A stretch of 63,101 nt of DNA, the filler included, from Hausera hauseri (lineage: Eukaryota): assembly GCA_046269625.1 (NCBI GenBank). It is 12 parts of 12 records of this genome, joined end to end, with 100 filler letters (N's around TTAATTAATTAA, not from the genome) between each part and the next. Parts side by side here need not be neighbours in the genome. Positions count along the whole stretch, not along the records: positions 33,893 to 43,004 come from JBJURY010459911.1; 11 more parts are not named here. One strand, 5' to 3'. The position numbers and the translations under genes were made by a program. Of the stretch, positions 2,180 through 62,602 are shown in pieces. The stretch's first letter is position 1; each line of letters opens with the position of its first letter. Below the pieces are notes generated by a model. That model searched no databases and had not been told where the DNA came from. It saw nothing but the letters and a program-made list of their open reading frames with translations.

Positions 2180-3190
2180 TTTAGTGTTCTCATCCTTGTG
2201 GATGGAACTTTTAAATATAAAAAGGATAAACACGTAAACACAGTCGAATAAAACGACTGAAACAAACACTGATAAGACGAGAAAACAATGAAAGCTATTT
2301 TTATTCAGTTCTCGCAAATCGTCCGCCGAGGCGTACGAGTCCTCGGTTGAGGAAAGGGCCCGGCCAATCCTCGGATTTCGGCGCGGACAAGTCGGAATGT
2401 CGTCTGAACTAAAATCAGTTGATGCTGGTTCAAGTCTTGTCGGCTCCAACCGGCGTCGACGGAGCGGTATGGGAACTTCGACTGGGCTCACTGTCCTAGC
2501 CTTCCGCTTGTCAGCAGTTCGACAGTCAGGAATCAACTGGCTCTCCGATGGAGCCAGCGACTCGAATAGCCGACCTGTTGCCGCCATCAGTCTTATAAAG
2601 ACTGGCAAGAAGGCGGAGGAGTCGAACAACCGTCGGCTATCTCTATCGGCGTAGAACCTCCGGAAATGCCCTGTCTGGAGGCAGTACGGCTCGTTTTCGG
2701 GCACTCCGCTGAGATGCCGCACGAAACGGCTCCGCTGCAGCAACTCTCGAACCGTACGATAATCAGAATAAGAACGGCACGGAGCTTGACGGTCCCGGAT
2801 GCGGTGTCATTTTTCGCGGGAGATGGTGTCTCGCCGGGCTGTGTGTTTTTGATCTTCTGATCGGGTTTGCTGTGCCGAGGCGGTACGCCTGTAGGTGTTG
2901 TTTTCCGCTCCGGCGTGTGTTGGTCGGAGTACCTTGGGAATGCGATACACCGGAATAGATACAGTCTTCCTTTCGCCAACTGTGGCGTCTGGTTGGATGG
3001 CTGCATCGACTAGGATGGCCCTAGTGTCTTCTGTGACTATTGGTTCTCCGGGCTTCGCTGTTCGGGTCGCCTGAGTTCTCGTTCCATTGCTACTGCTAGC
3101 GATATCGACTCGCATTGTTTTCGTGCTTTCCTTGGTGACGGATACACCGTTTTTCGATAATTTGGTTACTGTATTCGACTTTTCTGGCAT
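2180..3190 (-). pseudogene. LTR-encoded protein of unknown function (single frame, one in-frame TGA at 2807-2809, open to the LTR end)
   Basis: ORFs 2807..3190 and 2099..2743 are in the same frame; core LQRSRFVRHL..YADxDSRRLFDSSxFxPVFIRLMAA..FESLxPxExQLIP shared with 39429-40424. Confidence 0.8.
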
Positions 3191-3511
3191 GCCTGTAGAT
3201 ATTTTTTGAATAATTCTGTCTTTTCTTGAACTGTGGATTCAAACAAATGGATCTGAATCCACATATTTTGAATGTTGATAATTTTGCAAGTGCTGGTCAC
3301 TTTGGCACCTGTAATCCTGAATTTTAATTTTTCTTTTATAATTTATTATAGTTTCGTGTGGAACAAATTTTGGTGTTTAACGAATCCGTGATTTTGTTTC
3401 TGATATTTGATTTTGTATTTTTGTGTTTAATTGGGCATGAATTTGTGATATTAAGTGATTTAGTTTAACTTAAGTAGATTAAATATGTTTTTTGTAAGGT
3501 GGAACCTTACA
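2180..3511 (-). mobile_element. Solo LTR (~1.33 kb) of the element-B family, flanked by 5-bp TSD ATAAG
   Basis: Minus strand starts TGTAAGGTTCCACCTTAC and aligns end to end with 39077-40322, which is followed by a PBS; ATAAG at 2175-2179 and 3512-3516. Confidence 0.85.
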
Positions 3512-4849: not shown

Positions 4850-7800
4850 AGTTATCATATTAGGTATGGGTTTACCTGGACTGATGTTGTCGTTGACCAT
4901 GGTTTGGTCGTAACTGGCCTTGGGTTGGGATGTTTTGTGTTGTGCCTCAACTATCGATTATGGTTTAATATTAATATCGCCTTTCTTCTCATAGTGATCA
5001 TCGTCGCTATGCGATGTATTTTCACATTCTTCCATTTTAGATGATTCTCTGTTGTAGTAGATACGCATAATACGTTTCTCAAAAGTGTTTAACCGTCGCA
5101 AATTCTTCGTCATATCGGTCATTTCTTCCTTTTCCTTATATGATCTTAATCGACGGTTACTTTTTAATCTCTCCCATTATTCTTTAAATGGTTTAGCTAT
5201 TTCTTCGCCATTGCTTAACTCGCAAAATATTAGACGATATCGTAGTGCATTTAACTTACCTGAAAATCCGCTTGCATTTACCATGTCGAACTTATCTATA
5301 TCTTCGTAATTCGATGGGGTTAAAGGTGTATTTAAAGCCCGATTCAAACAATTATTCCATACTATTCGCGCTTCCTCTTCTTCATAGGCATCTATTTCGT
5401 CCTGAGTAAGTTCGTCTTTTATTGCCATAAGTATGTATGTCTTCCAGAAACTGATCATGAAGGAATCCGAATGGACGTTACTTATGAACCCTTCGCCATA
5501 ACTCTTAAATAGTCCTAGACAACTATCAGCCAGTTTGACAATTCTGTTTGGTGGTTTATTTGCTATTAGTTCCGGAGACATTCTTTGAAGAAGATTAATT
5601 ACGTACGCTGCAGGAAATACCGACGATTTTCCTCGCAGGAAGCGAGTAATCAACATACGTTGTCTATGACTTCCGATAAATAAAGTTTGATATTTATTTT
5701 TATCGCCATATACTATACTTTTTTCGTGGGTTAGTCGGTATTTTTCTATTAATGGATCAAATGACCTAAGGCAGCGTATTATTTGTAATGGAGAATGTGT
5801 TTCTAGTCGGGCTTTAACAGCGATTCATATTTTGGGCATATGGGTTCATTGATCGGTGTTCCCATTACATCAGTCCAGGTCCCTATCAAAATACTAATAG
5901 GTTGTAACCGTATTGGTTGTGGGGATGTTTCCATTACAATTTGTTTAAACAAGCACAATCCCTCATAGTATGCTTTGGCTCGGAAATCATTCGATGTGTG
6001 GGACAATGACATATTGGAAGAAATTTTATAAGATGTATACAGGATGCTAGCTATTAATAGCAATTGGTATCTATAGTCCGATCCTTTAAAGTTTATTCCA
6101 GCTTCATGTTTGAGCCGATCGAAATATGATTCGTATAAGATTGTATATAACTTCATGAAGTCTTTTTGTTCCTCGTTAGGTAATTGAGTTATACTACCTC
6201 CTAGCAGTAAGCAATTAATAATATCTTTGTCCCATTCATGCGGGGTCTCTCCAAAGATGCGAAGTATGGTAGTAGGTTGTCGTCTTTAGGTATTGTGATG
6301 GGCTGGTCGTCTTTTTATTTAATATCGTTTAGCCATTGATCTGTTCTGTTTGCTATAAGACGTAACTCTTTTATGGTGTTCGGAACATCTTGATCCTGGG
6401 GACATACTTCCAGTGAATTGATAATAGTTTGGTGTAATGGTTGATACACTAATCTATGCATTACTCGGTTCAATTCCTCTCGGACCGGTGGGAGACTGCT
6501 TGGATTCGTGTGTAGAGCATTTATTATCATAAAGTAAGAAATTATCTGGTTGGCCATCGCTCAATCGTATTCCCATTTGGAGCCTACTACGTATGCAATG
6601 GTGGTTAGTATTATATTGGTTTTAGGTGTTGCAGTTGTTGGTATCATTTTAAGGTCCTCTTTTATAACCTCTATCAGATCTGACGCAAGTAGCCATCGGG
6701 TTCTGCATGGTTTATTTTTACTTCCATTTTTGTTCAATCCATCCATGGCATATTGTATGGGATCAGGGAATTCTTTCCATTCTCTAGTATTAGCATAGCC
6801 TTTCCGTATTATTTCTTTAGAACAATAACATTTTTGTGTCTTTAGAAGGGGTTGATGTTCAATTTCGATATTTTTCTACCTTCATATCGATTTGAATATA
6901 ATACTCTTCTTTCTAAATGAGTGAAACAGTCGTGATGTACTTTTACTTTTTGGTATTCTCTTACCACTTGTATTAAACTAGAATAGTTATAACCAAGTTT
7001 CACTTGTCGGCGATTGGACTCTTCGCTCTATTGTTCATCGAATGAAGAGTCTGACGAGACTTTTTCGGTTACATCGTATAATATTTCATTCACTAATTTT
7101 GCATCTCCTATTAGATATCTTCGAATATTTGATATGGCAGAAGATATATGCTGTGGTTAATTGCCTTTATACTCCAAAACTGTCTTAATATAGGTGATAT
7201 CTTCTCGTTCCTTCTTGAACGGTTCTGCTATGTCGTGGTCATCATTCAACATACAAAATAGCAATCTGTAACGACAGCATTTAGATTACAAGATAATCAT
7301 TTGACATTTACTTGTTGCAACTGACTAATTCCGTTGTTTTCCTTTCTGTTTAAAAGAGCGCCCGTATACATACGTAGATAATCATTCCGTAGTATCCGGG
7401 CTTCTTTCTTTTCCATCTCCTCTATTTCTTCTTTTCTTACTTCGACCTGTAAGGTCCTTAATGTATATGTTAAACAACAATTGATTGTAAACGAATTGTT
7501 TATTTTCCTGTTTATTAGCTCTCCACCAAAATTCTTAAATAATCCTATGCTTTTCTCTCCAGCTTCCTCAGCCCTTTTTTGGATATATAGGCATCGCACA
7601 ATGGAGATATCTGTTGCAATAAGGTAAATATATTTACATTAGGGACTTGCGGTATTTGTTCTCTTAAGAAATGTGTAAGAAAGATTCGTGGTTCCAACGA
7701 ATAGGCGTTGATACCTCATTACATATCCGTAAAGGGAAGAGTCTAATGCTGTCCATGCGTTCTTAGTGTAAATATTTTCGTCGTCGCAAGTCAATCCATT

Positions 7801-38100: not shown

Positions 38101-38500
38101 TTTTTAAGATAGACTTCCGTATTCCGGTCGACCGCGCGTAAGTCGAAATACTATTAATATGTCCAGAAATGTCGCCAACGGTGCCTCTCCTCAAACATCG
38201 TTAAGTGTAGTCCACCAGTAGATTGTAATATGAGAGAAAGTCAGATCCAAGGATTGCCGACTGGACGTTAGCGACTGTGAACGTCCAGCGGAAAGGCGCA
38301 GAGAAATCGGGCAAAGTGTAAGATAGTGTAGACGTACCCGAGATGTACAGCGTCTGGCCTGAAGCAGTATATAAAGGCTTAAGTTTGAATGGAGAATTTT
38401 GTGTAGGAAAGGTTTGCGGTAATAGAGAAATTGCTGCCCCTGTGTCTATGAGAAAGTGAACAGATTGAGTCATAAGGGCAGTGATTGCTGCCTTTAGCGT
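35190..38500 (-). mobile_element. Element A pol: protease, spacer, RT, RNase H, integrase (589-aa intact core 35838-37607)
   Basis: FLIDTGAAISLLP, SPWSSPLHVV, PYIDDIL, LTTDAS, TDHK, DQGPQFES. Confidence 0.97.
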
Positions 38501-38583
38501 GAAAACTGCGAAAGAGGTGTGTCGGCGTTCCGAATGTGAAAGAGTGCCCTCGCCAGAGTTTGCCGTGACTTTTGGCGGCGAAC

Positions 38584-38860
38584 TTAGTTTTTTGGAAAAA
38601 ATGAACTGGGACGACTGTGAGAAATGAAGGTAGTACGTCCGTTGTTCGTGTTAGATTTGAATGTACAGTCAGGTATACATTTACGTGCTTGATTTTTGAA
38701 TCTTGCAGGGTAAATGCAAACAACGGTGTCGGAGGAAAACTCCTTATCATAAAATTGGCATCCCAGGCAGCACCTCTGAGCATTAGCGTTGAATCTGCTG
38801 TGATAATAGCTGATCGACGAACGCGCTGGTGATGGTGAGCGGTTTTGTGACGTAGATAAT
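38584..38860 (-). mobile_element. Element A Gag C-terminus with two CHCC knuckles; capsid region missing
   Basis: SYYHSRFNANAQRCCLGC..VCIYPARFKNQARKCIPDC; AAAAAAC slippery site at 38587-38593. Confidence 0.8.
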
Positions 38861-38864
38861 TCAT

Positions 38865-39074
38865 TCCACCGCGGATACGGAGATGCACGTTGAAGCAAGC
38901 GTGATTGGAAAAGGAATGTACAATTTCATTAAGGTGTATAATAGCGCCGTTTAGAGTGAGATAGGAATCTGAGGAACCAAGGAAAGAAGAAATGCGGGTC
39001 CGAAGGGTGGGGATGTGTGGGTGTGTTCTGTGGAGGGCATATACGTGTTTGTTGTTATAAAAAAAGAAAATGGA
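38865..39074 (-). CDS. Ubiquitin-like domain of element A (ends LRIRGG|M)
   Basis: SIFFF..TLRTRISSFLG..YLTLNGAII..CFNVHLRIRGG aligns with ubiquitin (QIFV..NVKAKIQDKEG..RLIFAGKQL..TLHLVLRLRGG); ~70 aa. Confidence 0.8.
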
Positions 39075-39076
39075 GG

Positions 39077-40322
39077 TGTAAGGTTCCACCTTACGAAATA
39101 TTAAAATTTACATTAAGACAAACCAAATCAGCAAAATGAAAATTTTTTACTAATAACAAAATTTAAAATTCAAAAACCTCAAAATTTAAATAAATTAAAA
39201 TACCTAAAATAAAATAAAAAAAAATAGATAAGTTGTAAAAAAAACAATAATCACGGACTCACCAAACATAAAAATTTGCAATTAAAATAAATCAGGATTA
39301 CAAGTGCCAAAGTAACCAGCATCTGTAGCCAACAAAAAATCAAAAAAACAAAATTTGTGGATTTAAACTCACTTGTTTAAATCCACAGTTTAAAATCTGA
39401 ACAGTTTATTCAAAAGAAAAAAAACAAGATGTCCAAACCATCGGAATGCAAAAATGGCAAGATGTTGGCAACAAAAGCAAAACCTGGGAAACCCATTTCC
39501 ACGAAAGCTGCAAAGGCTACACTAACTGACGTCGCCGTCCCTGAAAGGAATATGCGGCTCACCCAAAACTACCGGATCTCTAAGCAAACCGAACCAGATC
39601 CGACGATGATACGAGACCAGGATGCCATGAAATCCGGCGATTCAATCACCCGCGAGGCCGCCAAGGTACCCCAACCGATACTTAATGAACAAGGGAATAC
39701 AAACGGCCGCTGCGTCGCCTCGACAAAACAAACCCGATCCGAAGACCGGAGCCGTACCACACGGCGAGCCAATTGTCAAAGAAGCCGCCAAGCTCCGTGC
39801 TGTTCATATCCCGATTATATGACGGTGTGAGAGTTCTTACAACGAAGCCGCTTTGTACGGCACCTCACCGGGTTGTCCGAGGGCGATCCACATTGCCTCC
39901 CTCACGGACATCTCCAAAGGTTATATGCCGACGGAGACAGCCGACGGCTGTTCGACTCTTCCACCTTCGTACCAGTCTTTATAAGACTGATGGCGGCGGC
40001 CGACCGGATGTTCGAGTCACTGGTTCCTTTTGAGAGACAGCTGATTCCGAACTGAAGAATCTCCGAATTACGGCGGATCAGGGCGTACAGCTCCAGCTCT
40101 GACGATCAGCCGGCTCCACCCCGTCGACTCATCCAAACGGAACCGTCCCTATCCAGTACGGACGAATCGCACACCTCGGCGGACGATTTACGAGAACCTA
40201 ATAAACGTTACTCTCGTTATTTTGTTGTCTTCCTTACTGTTGTTTCAGTCGTTTTATTCGACTGCATTTACACTCTTTTCCGTTTTTTACTTGCAAGTTT
40301 TATAAAATGTGAAAGCTCTAAA
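39077..40322 (+). mobile_element. 5' LTR of element B (abuts the 5' region of element A)
   Basis: Starts TGTAAGG, AATAAA at 40200, PBS follows; homologous to solo LTR 2180-3511. Confidence 0.88.
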
Positions 40323-40427
40323 ATGGTGGCAGCGGTTACCGCATTCACGCCCTATAACACAAACGCAGCCGTTAAAATAAATCCGGCTCAAACACTTCAC
40401 ACCGTCATTGATAACAATCAAGCTTAA
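39429..40427 (+). pseudogene. LTR-encoded ORF of element B, read through U5 and PBS (in-frame TGA at 39828 and 40053)
   Basis: ORFs 39429 and 39873 share a frame, which is open again from 40056 to 40424; homologous to 2180-3190. Confidence 0.8.
40324..40336 (+). promoter_or_regulatory. Primer-binding site, tRNA-Leu type
   Basis: TGGTGGCAGCGGT is complementary to the ACCGCTGCCACCA 3' end of metazoan tRNA-Leu(AAG/UAG). Confidence 0.85.
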
Positions 40428-40761
40428 ATTCACACAAGTGCCGTCGAAATTAATCCGGTCACACATTCGTGCATCACTAAACATGATCACGTTATACCCA
40501 CTAACAGTTGTATCATCAAAAGCAACTGCAACCAGAAAATTACAACGCGTAATATCAAACAAGTGCCAATATATTCTAGCACTAACACACGCGTCAACAC
40601 CGTCAAATCGGAATACAAATCCGATTATTCGAACCGTGCCAAAATAGCACACACCAAGCGAAAATTCACTATTTAACAATTCACCCAATCGTCAGTCGAT
40701 TAACCTAGACAACAGAATTTACCATGGTGAAACAACATCGACCGACTCTACGCCAAACGAA

Positions 40762-41885
40762 GTGCAACTCATTGTACAAAACTGACATCAGACGAAAGCT
40801 CATCGCTTCCCGTCGACCCTAACTATGTCGGGAATGCTGTAAGTTTTAAACCAACAGTATCCCGAGCATACATTTTCATATAATGGAAAATTATTATGCA
40901 AGAATAATTGCGTAATCAATAAAATTTTGGTTGGCAATACCACCATACTGGCGACTCCGAAACTAAAAGGACGCGTTGACAACCTTACGCCTGACAAAAG
41001 AGAAACTGCTTTAGCAACACAGGCCAAACCACCAAAATTAGCATGTCCAACCTTTTTTATAGGTTCGAACGGAACGCCATTGAAGTGGTTTTATGTGTTT
41101 GAAACATGGGCTACACAATGCAGCATCACTGGCCAACTAAACAAGGCCTTAACACTCATTTAATACCTGCTGCCAACAACGCTTGCAGCCATAACGGATC
41201 TGGACACGCTACTGTCAGATCAAAAGCCGTTCGACATAATCAAAGCAGCCAAGTGCAAAGCATATCTGCCATCCCAACAGGACCAGTTCAACTTGATCTT
41301 CACCAAGCGACAGACAGGGAATATAAAACCGTCTGCTCTGCTTTACAAGTTACGCCCAGACTTGAGCAATGCTGAGTTGGACCTCCGCACCAACCAACAC
41401 ATACTACGGCGCTACTTCCTAAGTAGTTTGCCCAATCAAATTTAAGCGGCATTGGTGCTATTACCGCCCGATACCACTTTGGACGATATGACATCTAAAG
41501 CCGACAAATTATACGAGTGCATTAAAGGCACCGTAGAATCCGCACCAACGGAAAACATACACTCCGTCACGGCGACCCAGTAAAATCAGCTGGACATAAT
41601 TATCGCCGCAATGCAGGCACTTGTAACGCACAAGAATCTTCCAGCCAGGCACAAACCGTCATCTCGGTGCCAATCCCCCAAGAGGAAGAAAGGCAAATTT
41701 TCCAAAATTTGCCACTTCCACACACGATTCGGCGAATCCGTCTATAAATGCTACCATGGTTGTCAATTCGACAACCCATCTGCAAACATAAAAATGCAAG
41801 ATACTTGCATTTATCGTAATCATTTTGGTCCAGATGCAAAAGTCTGTCGACCCGGCTGCAAATTTCACAAGCCGTCAAAAACTAA
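40762..41885 (+). mobile_element. Element B UBL-Gag (UBL 40762-40974, capsid, two CHCC knuckles), with premature stops
   Basis: VQLIVQ..FSYNGKLL..NTTILATPKLKGR in frame with KLACPTFF..KWFYVFE; ICHFHTRFGESVYKCYHGC and CIYRNHFGPDAKVCRPGC. Confidence 0.82.
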
Positions 41886-41989
41886 ATGGGACCAGGCGAC
41901 TAACGGCACGTCTTCTGGAAACTCAATCACCATAACTGCCGTATACAAATAGCGAAATCATTGTAGATGCTATTTTTACCCTCGAGGTG

Positions 41990-42612
41990 GAGCCACTAAG
42001 CTCCGACATCTCGAAACAGCTCTATTTTTTAATCGACACAGGTGCAGCTCTATAGCTGATACCTAGCGCATACGCTAGACCTACGCTGGTCTCGCATGAA
42101 TCACTCAAAGCTGCCAATGGCACGCGCATGTCAACCACAGGTACACTGTACCTACAATTTCACATACAAGGCCGACCATACGCTTGGTCATTCATATTGG
42201 CCGATGTCATACAACCAATCTGTGGTTCTACTTCCTAGATCACTACGATTTCACAGTTGATTGCCGAAATCAACAACTCACCAGCGGAAGCAATCCACTG
42301 TCTCCACCAGCATTCACTCTAACCATAAACGTAGTCACGGGTATAAAAATCGCAAATCCCATTGACATCGCAACATTGCTGCAAGCGCAATACCCCAACC
42401 TGTTGAAACTCTCAGCACAACCAACACGGAAAGAGGTGAAAACATCACACTTTCTCGTTACATCATGTGATCGACCGATTCTGCAACCCCGGAGGGAGCT
42501 TGACCCTGTCAAGCGAGCAGCGCGGAAGCCGAATTCCGACACCTAGAAGAAACAGGCATCATACGCCGCTCCACATCACCATGGGCATTACCATTGCACA
42601 TGGTTCCAACGT
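41990..42612 (+). mobile_element. Element B protease and RT start (truncated)
   Basis: FLIDTGAA, LKAANG, GIIRRSTSPWALPLHMVP. Confidence 0.88.
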
Positions 42613-42614
42613 CA

Positions 42615-43004
42615 TAATTTGCAGCCAGGACAAATGTGACGAATGGATAGGTGGACTTGAACAAATCCATTGGTATGCCATTGCTGATGTTTTTCTTCAG
42701 CAAACCCATGTTACGCACAGTAGATTGCATATATGTGAAAACAAAATCATTAGACTCAATTCTTGTTTGTACGTCTCAACAAAATCCGCATTCCGGCCAA
42801 ACTGATGTAATTCACATCGCTATGGGTAAACGTTACCGAATCGGTCGTATTACTGCCCGTTTGTTGAACAGTCGTTTGAAATGTAACGAAAACATATTTC
42901 GGTAATCGCATACCACAAAACAGTGCATCTTTGTAAAACGTAGTTGAACCTTTCGGTATGGTGTAAAAGATGAGTTCTGTGCGTTGTATCGGTTAACAGG
43001 CATT
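42615..43004 (-). pseudogene. Polinton/Maverick (adintovirus-like) major capsid protein fragment
   Basis: A(Y)PIQRTE..TIPKG..DALFCG.RLPKYVFV..FTH.DVNYISL and ..YMQ..NGI..F..YPFVTFVLA match the Polinton MCP C-terminal jelly-roll pattern. Confidence 0.75.
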
Positions 43005-48111: not shown

Positions 48112-49430
48112 CTAGAGGCGAATACAGTTTTTTTGGATTGGTGAGTTAGAACGGTTACTGTTAGAGACATTGGGACGTCTATTAGTGGTGCAGTTTTTGT
48201 TAGTTTTATAGTTACAGCCAGAAATACAATTCCGAGAATTAGATCCGAATTTTGCATGATAGATGCAAATTAAGTTATCCGAGTGTAGATTCGATGAATA
48301 ATATCTACACCCTAAAAAGCATTTATTTGCTTTGTTGTTACATTTGTTGTGGTAATAACATATGAATGACCGCGTTGGTGACGATGTTCGACTTTTGGAA
48401 GGAAAACGTGTTCGATAAGGCGAGGGAGCATTCCGTCGATGTAAAGAAAGGTCATTCAGCCTGTCATTGATGGTGTTGATTGTGCGTTGTATTGCTGCAT
48501 TTTCGGCTCGTAATTGGTTCATCTGGTGCTCAATGGATGTATGTCGTTGGTTGTCATCGTTTGTAATAGCGGCTGATATGATAGGTTGTGATTGGATTTG
48601 TAAGACTTCGTGTGCTTTATTTGCCAATTCAGCCAGTTTATCTAAGGCTGTAGAATCTTCAACAACGGTAAGTAAAGCCCTGATTTGAATGGGTAACGCA
48701 TTAAGGAAATATCGTTGGAGTAGATCCGGATTATGTTCCTTGGTGACACCTAAAGTACGTAAGTGAGCCAACGATGTACGTAGGAAATCACTAAGTTTTT
48801 GTGTCCCCATTGCGTTTTCTTTAAAGAAGCGCTGCATTATTGAATAAACTGATGGTTCTGTCTGTTTTAACACAGCATCGAACAGTTGGGTATAGAGGTA
48901 AGAGTGTTGAAAGATGTCCAGTAAGTTGTGGATTGAGGCTTTTATGGAATTTGGTAGAAGGTAAAGTAGATTACGGGCTTTGGATAACGAGTCTGTAATA
49001 CTGTTGGACTGTAACCAGAGTTGATGAAAGTGGAGCCAAGTTTTGCTAGACTTATTGTCTATAAAACATTCAGAACAATATTGTGAAGTACTGATGATTT
49101 TTGTAAGAATTTGTATCGGTTGCAGTAGGTGGATGGCTTGATTTGGGGTAGTAGAGAATGGATTTCGATTTTGTGGTCACCTTATTCTTGACGTCACTGG
49201 TTGATGGAGAAATCATACCGTCGCGGATTCTAGGATTGATATGTATACACAGATACTCATGTGAGGCCATGATGTGTGGGTGGTCGACTAAAATGAAACC
49301 GTTGTGAGTCAGGTAGAAATCGCTGTAGACGGAGGTATTATGAATGATAGCGTATAGTTGTGATGTTTCAATACGTTGTCTGACATGTACTATTTGTATT
49401 AGATTATTATTAACATAAAAATAGAGGGGG
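48112..49430 (-). mobile_element. Element C UBL-Gag (UBL ~49217-49428, capsid, two CHCC knuckles, AAAAAAC slippery site at 48127-48133)
   Basis: PLYFYV..SDFYLTHNGFIL..IHINPRIRDG|M; FLNALP..LAELANK; ICYYHNKC..KCFLGC and ICIYHAKFGSNSRNCISGC. Confidence 0.85.
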
Positions 49431-49539
49431 AATGATGGTGGTGTACTGTAAACCGGGCAGTGTGATATATCGATGTGGTTCTTCGAAGGTAAGAGAGTTG
49501 CTGTGTGTTGATGAATATGTCCGGTCTGTGGACTCACTA

Positions 49540-49934
49540 TGCTTAATGGATCTATTGCCCTTATAACCGATGCGTATTGAAAAATAACGACAATAACTAG
49601 GAGACGGATTCTGTCCAAAGTCAGAAGCTCTAGTTAGGTACTGGCTGTAATCAGAAGAATAAATCGGGCCAAATTTATGATAACGTGCCTTACTTCTACC
49701 TCTTCTCATTAAGGATTCATCAAATTTCATATATGGTTCGTTGTCGAGTTTTGTAGGTTTGACAAGACAAAGTACGGGTGATATACAATTAACAATGCCG
49801 CATACTGACTGGGCTATTTCATTAATTTCTACGTGGCCATCATCGAAATCACGCATTCCTACGATAGTCAAATACTTCATAACGTAAAAGCCTAGTTTAC
49901 CAATTTTGCCCAATGAAGCTAATTTGAATTTCAA
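49540..49934 (-). CDS. Unidentified ORF fragment abutting element C
   Basis: Part of a 174-aa ORF of protein-like composition; family not recognised. Confidence 0.3.
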
Positions 49935-50299
49935 TGTAGAATGAGTAACTTTATTAACAGTTGCAACATATCTCAGAAGACTGTCTGGGCAAGAACTAAA
50001 GTGAAACCACTGTAGAAAAAATAGAGGAAATTTATGANNNNNNNNNNNNNNNNNNNNNNNNNNNNNNNNNNNNNNNNNNNNTTAATTAATTAANNNNNNN
50101 NNNNNNNNNNNNNNNNNNNNNNNNNNNNNNNNNNNNNGGGTCTGACAGAATTGCTCAAAACACATCAAAATATTATAGTATGAAGAGATTTGTTAGCCGA
50201 ATTGAAAGATTCATGACGATGAACCACAATAATAATCCTACGAAAATGTGAACTTTGTAATTGTTACCAAGAGAGATTTGTTAATGTAAATACTAAATA

Positions 50300-52176: not shown

Positions 52177-52376
52177 ATTCGTTTTTGTTGGATTTACATA
52201 ATATTTAACTGGTAGACTCGTGGATCGGAACCACGCTCTGCTACCATTTGATGGATGTTTTATAATGTGTTGATATAGCGAACTACGTAATTCTCTTTTT
52301 AAACAATTAGTTAATCTGAACCCTAACTCATTTCCCGGTGTTAACTTTATTGTCTTCCTCTTGGGCCCATTTAATC

Positions 52377-60945: not shown

Positions 60946-62602
60946 TTTTTTTTTTTTTTTTTTTTTAAAGTTTAATAACCCACATCATACATGAAGTGAC
61001 TGTACAACACAGATGAGACATTTTGTTACGGAGAGCATTTACAAAAACAAAAGCATAAAAAGCATATTCCATTAAAATGTGTTACATAAATGAGTGTCGT
61101 CCTGTGACATTCGGACAAATGTATAAGTGTCTAATATACCCTTAATTAATTTTCACATGTGACTGGCAGTTAATAGACGGTTTCCCATTCGTAGGTGATT
61201 GATAACGGTGGGTACTTGTCTTCCGGCTCGTCTGGTTCTAACGCCTTCCAGATGAATACCCCATTGTCATCCGTATATCTGCATACTTTCCTCCAGCCCG
61301 GTTTTTCTTGCTTTATGAGCGTCCTTTCATCTGGCCTTTCTTTGGCGAGGCTGTTTCTTTCCTTGTCGATGAGATCTTCTTCGGAGCTTGTGTCAGTCAT
61401 TTGAGAGTCTGCATCAGCTGTTAGTTCATGAGTATGACCATCGGTTGATGGATCTTCGTCGTCCTCGTTTGTTCTTGATCTTGTACTGTTGTTTGTTGTT
61501 AACCTATGTTTGGCTGGTGTATGTTCTTTCGGTGGAGAATTCCTATGGCCTCTTTTCTTCTTCTTGTGAGTGTTTCCCTTCTTGGAGTAAAGGGCTTCTT
61601 CGTCGAGATCTTCCTTGCTCTGTTGATCATCCGGATTTTGCTCATCTGGGTGCTGTCTTTGCCTGGGTGGGCTGTTGGCGGGGATGATTTCCAGGTGTGG
61701 ATTGTCTTGGTTTAGTGGTTGGGGATGATTAGTTTTGGATTGATTAGCCGGGGGTTCTTTTGGTTGAGAGTCTGCTGCTGCTGTTTGTATGGACGCTTTC
61801 CGAAGATTTTTACGATTTTGCGGGCACTGGTTTGTCCAATGGTCATCTTTGCCACATATCTGGCATTGGGTTCTTCTGCCGGGAACAGTAATCAATATTC
61901 TGCATTTTATCCTGTTGCTATGACTTGCTGCGTTTAGATCCAAATAGTGAGGTACGGCTTTTTTCGGGACGCACGTAAATGTCCATTTATCGTTGTGTAA
62001 GGGGACAGGCAGTGGTTCTGCTTCTGGATCTCCAGAGATAAAGAAAGCCAGCTTCTTGGCGGTCTCTTTTTTTAAGGTTGGAGGCAGCCAATGCATTGTT
62101 ACCTTGGATCTGTCTTTTTCGTAGTGTTCAATGCTGACGGTGATATGTGGGTTTGTGTAGTTCAGGCTGATTCCATGTAGCTTTGAATAGGCTTGAATGT
62201 GAGCTGATTGTGTCAGTGTTGCATACCACTTGAATGGTTGTTCAAATCTGTACAGTGTTCTGAGCCCATTTGGGCCCACTCCCTCTAGCGCCATGAGTAT
62301 GCTTGCCATTTGGGCGTATGTCATTTGACTGGCTTGAGGTCCTGTAACCTTGAGAAGCAACGTGTTGGGCCTGTGAAAGGACGCGCCTTCCAAAGACTCC
62401 TTCACGTCAATGTCGAAGGTTTCAATCTGTGCTGGGAGTCCACTCATTCTGAAAAAGTCACGATCACAAACATTTAATATTAGTGACACCAATCTTAGTC
62501 TAGAAACACCGAAATGTTTCCGGCCATTTTTGTGTTAATTTTTTGATGAAGTGCAAGCCAAGGGCTTCACCCTGGTAGCGTAAAATCTTCCGAAACACCA
62601 AA
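60946..62602 (-). mobile_element. ORF1-only non-LTR retroposon (HAL1-like) with poly(A) tail and 16-bp TSD
   Basis: GGAAATCTTTAGTAAA at 60930-60945 and 62603-62618; 21-nt poly(T) on plus strand at 60946-60966; ATTAAA signal on the element strand. Confidence 0.9.
61170..62447 (-). CDS. L1/Tx1-like ORF1 protein (~425 aa from ATG 62447) with CCHC knuckle
   Basis: VTMHWLPP, VPHYL, ITVPGRRTQCQICGKDDHWTNQCP, charged disordered tail; no stops. Confidence 0.85.
   Translation of the reverse strand: MSGLPAQIETFDIDVKESLEGASFHRPNTLLLKVTGPQASQMTYAQMASILMALEGVGPNGLRTLYRFEQPFKWYATLTQSAHIQAYSKLHGISLNYTNPHITVSIEHYEKDRSKVTMHWLPPTLKKETAKKLAFFISGDPEAEPLPVPLHNDKWTFTCVPKKAVPHYLDLNAASHSNRIKCRILITVPGRRTQCQICGKDDHWTNQCPQNRKNLRKASIQTAAADSQPKEPPANQSKTNHPQPLNQDNPHLEIIPANSPPRQRQHPDEQNPDDQQSKEDLDEEALYSKKGNTHKKKKRGHRNSPPKEHTPAKHRLTTNNSTRSRTNEDDEDPSTDGHTHELTADADSQMTDTSSEEDLIDKERNSLAKERPDERTLIKQEKPGWRKVCRYTDDNGVFIWKALEPDEPEDKYPPLSITYEWETVY

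Follow-up and report, generated by a model that had tools for sequence, protein, structure and literature searches.

A CsRn1-like retroelement family of Hausera hauseri with a predicted ubiquitin-like domain ahead of Gag and a reading frame that may begin inside the long terminal repeat

Introduction

Retroelements normally use their own protease to mature the Gag protein, and long terminal repeats (LTRs) are treated as non-coding. Here we describe element B, a decayed Ty3/gypsy copy starting at position 39077 of a 63,101-nucleotide stretch of DNA from the eukaryote Hausera hauseri (GenBank assembly GCA_046269625.1). The whole stretch, hereafter the window, consists of pieces of 4-9 kb with N-linkers between them. 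The family of B appears to combine an LTR with coding capacity, a reading frame that crosses the primer-binding site (PBS), a predicted ubiquitin-like domain (UBL) ending in Gly-Gly, and Gag. It is compared below with a solo LTR (A) and two further elements of the window (C and D), and with an intact natural relative, the protein P0002.

The closest described elements are those of the CsRn1 clade (CsRn1, PwRn1, AgCR1-14), for which the portion of the source covered here gives a CX2HX9CX3C knuckle, LTR ends of the type TGT...AAA or TGT...ATA, a tRNA-Trp PBS (TGGTGAG/CCCCGT/A) and a 4-bp target-site duplication (PMC2582038). Element B shares with this clade the knuckle, the TGT...AAA ends and a weak DUF7041 capsid match. 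It differs in having a PBS, TGGTGGCAGCGGT, which is not of the tRNA-Trp type, a doubled knuckle and much longer LTRs (1.25-1.33 kb in B and A against 146-381 bp in the CsRn1-clade rows seen); an LTR open reading frame (ORF), a linker and a UBL like those of B are not described for the clade in the same portion of the source (PMC2582038). Because its PBS departs from the tRNA-Trp type, B is filed as CsRn1-like and not as a clade member.

In Ty1, a copia-type element, the start of Gag lies inside the LTR. Its PBS, like that of B, lies inside the GAG reading frame (PMC4974528, as far as covered), but the LTR of Ty1 codes for only a few residues, and Ty1 has neither a separate LTR protein of 300 codons nor a UBL. 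The glyco-Gag of murine leukaemia virus (MLV) resembles B and P0002 in that it extends Gag in frame at the N-terminus and includes a hydrophobic segment, but, in the portion of the source covered, it starts at a CUG downstream of the PBS, adds 88 residues, adopts a type II topology with Gag outside, is glycosylated and has no UBL (PMC3042739). Unlike glyco-Gag, the frame of B and P0002 is open from upstream of the PBS, and their linkers are without N-glycosylation sequons.

In cytopathic pestiviruses, such as bovine viral diarrhoea virus (BVDV), a ubiquitin-type module in the polyprotein is a host-cleaved processing site. The B family also has a ubiquitin-type module in a polyprotein, but the BVDV inserts are recent and near-identical to the host sequence, whereas the UBL of the B family is highly diverged and fixed across subfamilies that are 29% identical in Gag. 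In the host protein SDE2, cleavage of an encoded UBL ending in Gly-Gly by a deubiquitinase (DUB) frees the downstream protein, an order of parts that SDE2/Sde2 and the ubiquitin-ribosomal fusions share with the B family (PMC13572447, in the portion covered). Those are host genes with an N-terminal UBL; the UBL of the B family sits inside a retroelement Gag, and its cleavage is predicted. The planarian gypsy elements Burro/GYPSM1 and the bdelloid ORF3 elements resemble B in carrying extra domains, some ubiquitination-linked and some fused to the polyprotein, but these lie downstream of Gag or form ORF3, and the portions of the sources covered describe no UBL-GG or LTR-started frame (PMC6431247, PMC5408684). 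The word 'ubiquitin' does not occur in the covered portions of PMC5408684 and PMC12471100, nor does the latter hold a UBL-Gag or an LTR-coded leader. Overall, a literature search that left subscription papers, Repbase, GyDB and supplements outside its scope found neither a UBL-GG in a retrotransposon Gag nor a long LTR-coded Gag leader.

Results

A continuous frame from the LTR end into Gag

The original prediction held that the ancestral element made one polyprotein running from an LTR-coded protein through a membrane-spanning stretch, a Ser/Thr/Asn-rich linker and a UBL-GG into Gag, which a host DUB would free from the membrane. A search with the UBL-Gag of B (X at its stops) returned one match among 1316 candidates, P0002, a single unbroken ORF of 648 aa on a 6279-base contig. 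P0002 consists of 128 residues, the sequence MVAA, a 140-residue Ser/Thr/Asn-rich linker, a domain ending in LKGG, a capsid (DUF7041 E 1e-4, below the cut-off) and two CX2HX9CX3C knuckles. MVAA is the translation of the LTR-PBS junction of B, and P0002 reads KMVAA at the same place. When P0002 is aligned with B by tblastn, one frame covers the LTR end and the leader (40287-40655, 52% identity) and the Gag frame covers UBL-Gag (40651-41880, 73% identity). The single frame of P0002 thus places the frame break of B near 40654 and marks the stop at 40425 as B's own; the frameshift that had been predicted exists, but not at 40675. We dropped an interpretation that placed three frame changes around the UBL, since P0002 aligns in one frame from 40651 on. 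Identity is 56% and 41% in the linker on the two sides of the break, 65% in the UBL (P0002 272-344), 84% in the capsid and 77% in the knuckles.

A continuous frame from the LTR end to Gag is therefore present, at the level of sequence, in this one intact relative and in the bridging contigs described below. The single ORF sought in an intact copy was found in P0002 as far as it runs unbroken from upstream of the PBS into Gag, but its upstream part is unrelated to the LTR protein of B. The upstream 128 residues of P0002 end like A and B, with Asn-Lys followed by a hydrophobic stretch; Asn-Lys stands 41 (B), 42 (A) and 41 (P0002) codons ahead of the LTR end or junction. This LTR-end-like tail aligns with that of A at P 0.004 and with that of B at P 0.13. 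By chance, 128 open codons would have a probability of 0.0001-0.02 over three backgrounds, judged after the fact. The N-terminus of P0002 has an in-frame duplication with a 19-residue period.

In B itself, the frame from ATG 39429 meets stops only at 39828, 40053, 40425 and 40674, while the Gag frame holds further ones at 40783, 40840, 41161, 41443 and 41581. As predicted, the frame crosses the PBS through ATG 40323, whose context has A at -3 and G at +4, and next meets a stop at 40425. A conserved stop between the LTR ORF and the UBL was looked for and not found. The PBS of B is presumably of the tRNA-Leu type; there is no tRNA gene within the window against which the primer could be matched.

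Related copies were sought in contigs of two public runs, X1 and X2, in one alignment of 500 records, with 16 of 508 pieces listed along with 40 of 49 difference rows. At the stop 40425, another letter was present in 2743 of 2818 X1 depth units (21 contigs) and in the one X2 contig. In a separate alignment, other letters made up 98-100% of the X1 depth at the Gag-frame stops 40783-5, 40840 and 41161. Among the pieces listed in the first alignment, both contigs bridging the LTR end by at least 31 letters differed from B by multiples of three, and both contigs bridging the break near 40654 were in register with Gag; two shorter crossings of the LTR end had no gap. The contig differences in the leader were spread flatly over the codon positions (11/7/8), a test that is uninformative because most of these differences are B's own decay. 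The PBS and Gag had a far higher summed contig depth than the B-type LTR, and loose ends occurred ahead of the PBS; this is a hint of other LTR types, depth being no copy number.

A selected ORF inside the LTR

The LTR ORF is genuine coding sequence under selection, as judged from the comparison of A and B. The absence of a common stop inside the LTR was borne out: A has one stop (2809) and B has two (39828 and 40053), both of which are sense codons in A and in P0001, a third homolog of the LTR protein. The two copies also reach the LTR end in the same frame, as had been claimed, and the 3-nt difference after FDC makes A one codon longer. Compared with 2000 dinucleotide shuffles, stops were depleted in the first 208 codons of B (1 vs 7.3 expected, P 0.004), in the first 222 codons of A (P 0.0025), in the last 114 codons of A (0 vs 4.7 expected, P 0.007) and in B over 40056-40322 (0 vs 3.3 expected, P 0.029). 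The depletion was weaker in the leader (1 vs 4.0 expected, P 0.078) and from AATAAA to the LTR end alone (last 42-43 codons, P 0.06-0.07). The DNA gaps between A and B within the ORF measure 15, 6, 27, 21, 72 and 3 letters, and two more of 2 and 5 letters on opposite rows net to three.

In an 88-codon core, A and B differ by codon position as 18/9/37 and are 72% identical in amino acids, with nonsynonymous and synonymous divergences (dN and dS) of 0.17 and 0.83 and a dN/dS of 0.21 (Fisher p 3e-8). The next 47 codons gave dN/dS 0.43 (p 0.02, from a protein-guided alignment, which is somewhat flattering). From AATAAA to the LTR end, dN/dS was 0.88 (p 0.82) at a low dS, which points to a constraint on the nucleic acid there. 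A phmmer search of 1.84 billion representatives returned P0001, a singleton protein, as the sole match to the LTR core (62% over the core). The LTR protein has no Pfam match and no usable match in the ESM Atlas, and a model of its core was helical and of low confidence (predicted local distance difference test, pLDDT, 49.5), with no match in a fold search.

The predicted ubiquitin-like domain

The UBL-GG-Gag part is the best supported piece of the proposed arrangement. A predicted UBL is present in all three window elements of the B kind that have a gag 5' end (B, C and D); the domains of C and D match each other (tblastx E 3e-5), and the Gags of C and B are only 29% identical. The claim of a UBL-GG ahead of Gag holds as far as the fold is predicted and the diglycine is intact in P0002 (LKGG) and D (RIRGG), directly after the last strand, but B's own diglycine is broken. 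The tail of D, HLRIRGG, resembles that of ubiquitin, and the UBLs of D and P0002 are only 27% identical.

A beta-grasp, ubiquitin-like fold is predicted for P0002. An AlphaFold2 model from the single sequence was poor overall (mean pLDDT 38), but residues 272-339 were modelled as strand-strand-helix-strand-strand-helix-strand at pLDDT 60-83. In a Foldseek list from the PDB, rank 1 was a long-helix artefact, and the other 49 of the 50 ranks were dominated by SUMO/ubiquitin-type chains at a template-modelling (TM) score of ~0.6, namely SUMO, ubiquilin, ISG15 and ubiquitin-type proteins. VIA-align of P0002 268-344 gave Z 6.6-7.7 with a root-mean-square deviation of ~3 A over ~70 residues, and a viral fold library returned ubiquitin-family proteins together with BVDV polyprotein fragments. 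Identity between the domain of P0002 and solved UBLs is only 7-20%. At the level of sequence, phmmer with the D domain alone found no ubiquitin, and a four-sequence profile matched only ubiquitin's tail, summed over polyubiquitin repeats; a profile search gave 3 matches among 7994 scored, including P0003 and P0004, two distant DUF7041 Gags without a recognisable UBL. The predicted UBL-GG is widespread in the family of B.

Element D seems to lack most of its capsid, the knuckle region following soon after the UBL-GG (38379-38860, minus strand). Directly upstream of the UBL of C, a 206-codon open frame (49413-50030, minus strand) overlaps the UBL frame over 49633-49410. It has no Pfam match, and its ESM Atlas scores are 0.80 or less. 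Its stop patterns fit a frame change to the UBL. This frame could represent either a third type of leader joined to UBL-Gag or an unrelated insertion. Longer homologs of the Gag of C were not found among 2628 candidates, which is weak evidence. Metagenome contigs confirmed 0 of 42 stretches, and viral contigs gave 2 matches and 0 loci.

Structure of element B and signals of the LTR

Element B is a decayed CsRn1-like Ty3/gypsy copy (Table 1). Its layout, LTR, PBS, gag and then pol, is that of Ty3/gypsy; the sister element D, related in Gag, has the pol order protease, reverse transcriptase (RT), RNase H and integrase, and B is truncated within RT near 42607. The CX2HX9CX3C knuckle is present twice in P0002 and C and once intact in B. 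Element B sits in the gag 5' end of element D, which is on the minus strand. Solo LTR A is flanked on either side by CTTAT, a target-site duplication of 5 matching letters, or 4 if the LTR end is set one base further, in this single insertion.

Table 1. Positions in the window of element B, solo LTR A and the related domains of elements C and D
Feature	Position	Strand	Remarks
5' LTR, element B	39077..40322	+	1246 bp, TGT...AAA ends; end-to-end homology to solo LTR A, then PBS and gag
Solo LTR A	2180..3511	-	1332 bp; same ORF from ATG 3190, one stop at 2809
Conserved non-coding block upstream of ORF	39292..39321	+	starts TCAG after AT-rich DNA; 11-nt identical run and flanking identity between A and B
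Conserved 13-bp hairpin	39356..39387	+	~40 nt ahead of ATG
LTR ORF	39429..40322	+	298 codons; stops 39828 and 40053 in B only; conserved predicted helical core 39786-40052
26-nt A/B-identical palindromic run	39972..39997	+	TATAAGA at 39980; candidate conventional TATA box inside ORF
AATAAA, likely poly(A) signal	40200..40205	+	read as Asn-Lys in ORF frame; conserved in A (2305)
T-rich hydrophobic-coding stretch, candidate transmembrane segment	40218..40295	+	overlaps 25-nt invariant hairpin 40240-40264
LTR-PBS junction	40323..40336	+	in-frame ATG overlaps PBS-like TGGTGGCAGCGGT starting at 40324
Ser/Thr/Asn-rich linker	40323..40758	+	~140 residues; stop 40425 and frame break near 40654 in B
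Predicted UBL of B	40759..40974	+	stops 40783, 40840; diglycine broken in B
Gag capsid (weak DUF7041) and tandem CHCC knuckles	40975..41885	+	stops in B at 41161, 41443, 41581
Broken pol start	41950..42607	+	aspartic protease DTG motif, first part of RT; from translation
UBL-like domain of element D	38862..39076	-	ends HLRIRGG
UBL-like domain of element C	49214..49411	-	ends PRIRDG; upstream of C capsid

Upstream of the LTR ORF, the conserved block at 39292..39321 is a candidate core promoter. In the hairpin that follows, 13 of 13 pairs are kept in A and B, with 1 compensatory and 2 one-sided G-U changes, in a comparison of two sequences only. A and B have the same first 18 nt of the LTR (39077-39094), and these fold into a short hairpin. 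The two longest runs of the LTR without any A/B difference (39972-39997 and 40240-40264) are similar palindromes, CAGTC...GACTG, with A/T-rich centres; the latter includes the reverse complement of AATAAAA, which might base-pair with the poly(A) signal or have a role on the minus strand. At the gag-pol junction (41870-41890), an A-run resembles a -1 frameshift site; the Gag of P0002 ends there, and B differs. A purine run ahead of the LTR of B was considered as a polypurine tract and ruled out, being the reverse strand of the coding sequence of element D. Past the truncation, at 42607-43004, a different repeat cuts off element B, and the summed contig depth there is much higher.

Other features of the window

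Host genes in the window, coding for HYPK and kinesin domains, mark it as eukaryotic. At 5177-6285 (minus strand), two long open frames overlap. They have no assigned family, the longer one being without a Pfam match, and are possibly an endogenised viral or element gene. At 61170-62534 (minus strand), a 454-codon ORF with a CCHC knuckle resembles, in our view, the ORF1 of non-LTR retrotransposons. At 52246 (minus strand), a PBS-like stretch that differs in type from that of B, TGGTAGCAGAGC..., presumably initiator-Met, adjoins a 299-codon ORF without an assigned family.

Discussion

Expression of the LTR ORF

On balance, we favour a family that keeps one frame from the LTR interior through the PBS, the linker and the UBL-GG to the capsid, with a precursor that is likely translated and likely cut by a DUB to free Gag. 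It is somewhat probable, judging from the LTR sequence, that transcription starts near 39295, upstream of the LTR ATG. The ORF is selected, and there is no stop before or after AATAAA in A other than 2809, and none in P0002; a message from the 3' LTR would therefore be non-stop, and the 5' LTR would be its easier source.

A conventional LTR with two products seems somewhat unlikely. Transcription would then start near 40010 behind TATAAGA, Gag would be made from the PBS ATG as linker-UBL-GG and capsid, and the LTR ORF would lie in the unique 3' region (U3) and be expressed from the 3' LTR, as are sag of mouse mammary tumour virus and nef of human immunodeficiency virus, leaving the open frame of the unique 5' region (U5) as a by-product of T-rich, A-poor sequence. 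The absence of a common stop in the LTR, which would leave the 3'-LTR product without a stop, disagrees with this, as do the A/B length differences in the ORF, all of which net to multiples of three, the two in-frame bridging contigs among the pieces listed, and the unrelated leader of P0002, likewise open for 128 codons. The TATA-like run, moreover, also codes for residues conserved in A, B and P0001 (PVFIRLM). Consistent with a conventional LTR are the lack of codon-level selection after AATAAA and the end of P0001 before the U5 part. The usual order in the LTRs of animal Metaviridae is TATA, AATAAA and a GT-rich stretch, although the borders of U3, the repeated region (R) and U5 need RNA data (PMC3601003, in the portion covered). 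Both starts, the LTR ATG and the PBS ATG, may be used.

A number of observations weigh against the continuous, DUB-cut precursor that we favour. Several come from the LTR: the invariant 26-nt run with TATAAGA lies 220 nt before AATAAA, followed by a GT-rich stretch, an ordinary geometry (R ~200 nt) in which transcripts from the 5' LTR would not include ATG 39429, whereas with a start near 39295 R would have to be ~900 nt long and the 5' poly(A) site suppressed. The PBS ATG stands in a strong context, is in frame in both B and P0002, and would alone explain the open leader. P0001 ends ~26 residues past the core without a hydrophobic tail, at a true stop or a contig end. In no frame do the first 128 residues of P0002 show homology to the B/A LTR core (best tblastn E 0.58), and their position in an LTR is deduced from the MVAA junction. 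The join of the B/A LTR protein to Gag thus rests on pieces, and no single sequence joining the B/A core to Gag was found; for the predicted polyprotein, P0002 confirms the order LTR end-PBS-linker-UBL-GG-Gag, but its leader is not homologous to the B/A protein. Of the contigs, one from X1 shows a gap at 40591 that changes the frame (818 of 3436 depth units), no insertion or deletion reaches a share of at least 40% among the difference rows listed, and the runs X1 and X2, whose kind is not recorded, are possibly not independent of the window. As for the UBL, the diglycine is broken in 2 of 4 copies (B and C), both from decayed elements; PB1, UBX, SUMO, FAT10 and midnolin tie in VIA-align at Z <8, a middling score; and there is no Pfam ubiquitin match (ThiS E 0.26, Sde2_N_Ubi E 8.7).

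Fate of the UBL and of the hydrophobic stretch

By analogy with SDE2, cleavage by a DUB after Gly-Gly is probable. The UBL might instead be an uncleaved interaction domain, used for proteasome or p97 targeting, or be removed by the element's aspartic protease. Such a role would agree with UBX, PB1, Ddi1 and midnolin scoring as well as SUMO, with the low identity to any solved UBL and with the broken diglycines of the two decayed copies. It is nonetheless unlikely, given that in P0002 and D, despite their low identity, the diglycine is placed just where the last strand ends, and that the tail of D mimics that of ubiquitin. That the LTR ORF is the relic of a captured host cDNA, fused to Gag incidentally, appears very unlikely. 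LTR-mediated retroposition often gives in-frame products (PMC5131818, in the portion covered), and P0002 has a different leader; however, A and B share the LTR head, the upstream blocks, the ATG position and a colinear ORF at dS 0.8-1.1 with dN/dS 0.2, which implies that selection acted after any capture, and no host-type homolog was found among the 1.84 billion representatives.

The membrane tether of the original prediction fared less well than its reading frame. Hydrophobic 19-residue segments occur at all three LTR ends (best Kyte-Doolittle means 2.37 in B, 2.77 in A and 2.28 in P0002), they exceed shuffled sequences (B P 0.031, A P 0.002), and most A/B replacements within the stretch keep a hydrophobic residue. 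But the hydrophobic codons show no selection at the codon level (dN/dS 0.88), a different frame of B comes close in hydrophobicity (2.08), T is not enriched at codon position 2 (p 0.3-0.5), the flanking charges give no clear orientation, and the stretch overlaps the invariant 25-nt hairpin downstream of AATAAA. When a long signal-less N-terminus is followed by a single hydrophobic segment, a type II topology results by default. With the 260 signal-less residues here, this would place the UBL and capsid in the lumen of the endoplasmic reticulum, beyond the reach of cytosolic DUBs. Nor is a surface form like glyco-Gag supported, since both linkers have 0 sequons against 3.7 and 2.6 expected. A membrane tether is thus unlikely, and its fuller version, an anchor from which a DUB frees Gag, quite unlikely. 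The stretch is more likely a by-product of a poly(A)/U5 element kept stop-free, in line with the caveat of the original prediction that its codons may reflect a polyadenylation element.

Proposed mechanism and its meaning

In the arrangement that we favour, an element would be transcribed from near 39295, and the whole frame would be translated as a precursor of LTR-coded leader, linker, UBL-GG and Gag. A host DUB would cut after Gly-Gly, as for SDE2 and ubiquitin fusions, and free the capsid-nucleocapsid from whatever precedes it; a second, shorter form would arise from the PBS ATG. With the UBL tag as release site, the N-terminus of the capsid would be independent of the upstream sequence, and subfamilies could carry different LTR-coded leaders, such as the B/A protein, the unrelated leader of P0002 and perhaps the 206-codon ORF of C. 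We tentatively extend this to a view of the LTR as an exchangeable protein-coding cassette fused to Gag, in which a domesticated UBL might serve as a host-cleaved release site and unrelated leaders (three candidates) might be co-expressed with the capsid; a freed leader ending in UBL-GG could serve as a decoy, or the host ubiquitin machinery could even conjugate it.

If true, the family would have a new strategy of Gag expression and processing, with a host-cleavable UBL site ahead of the capsid, and a conserved orphan protein coded inside the LTR in frame with UBL-Gag. A transposon would also have stably captured a ubiquitin-type module, and the arrangement would explain how LTR cargo can be swapped without disturbing the capsid.

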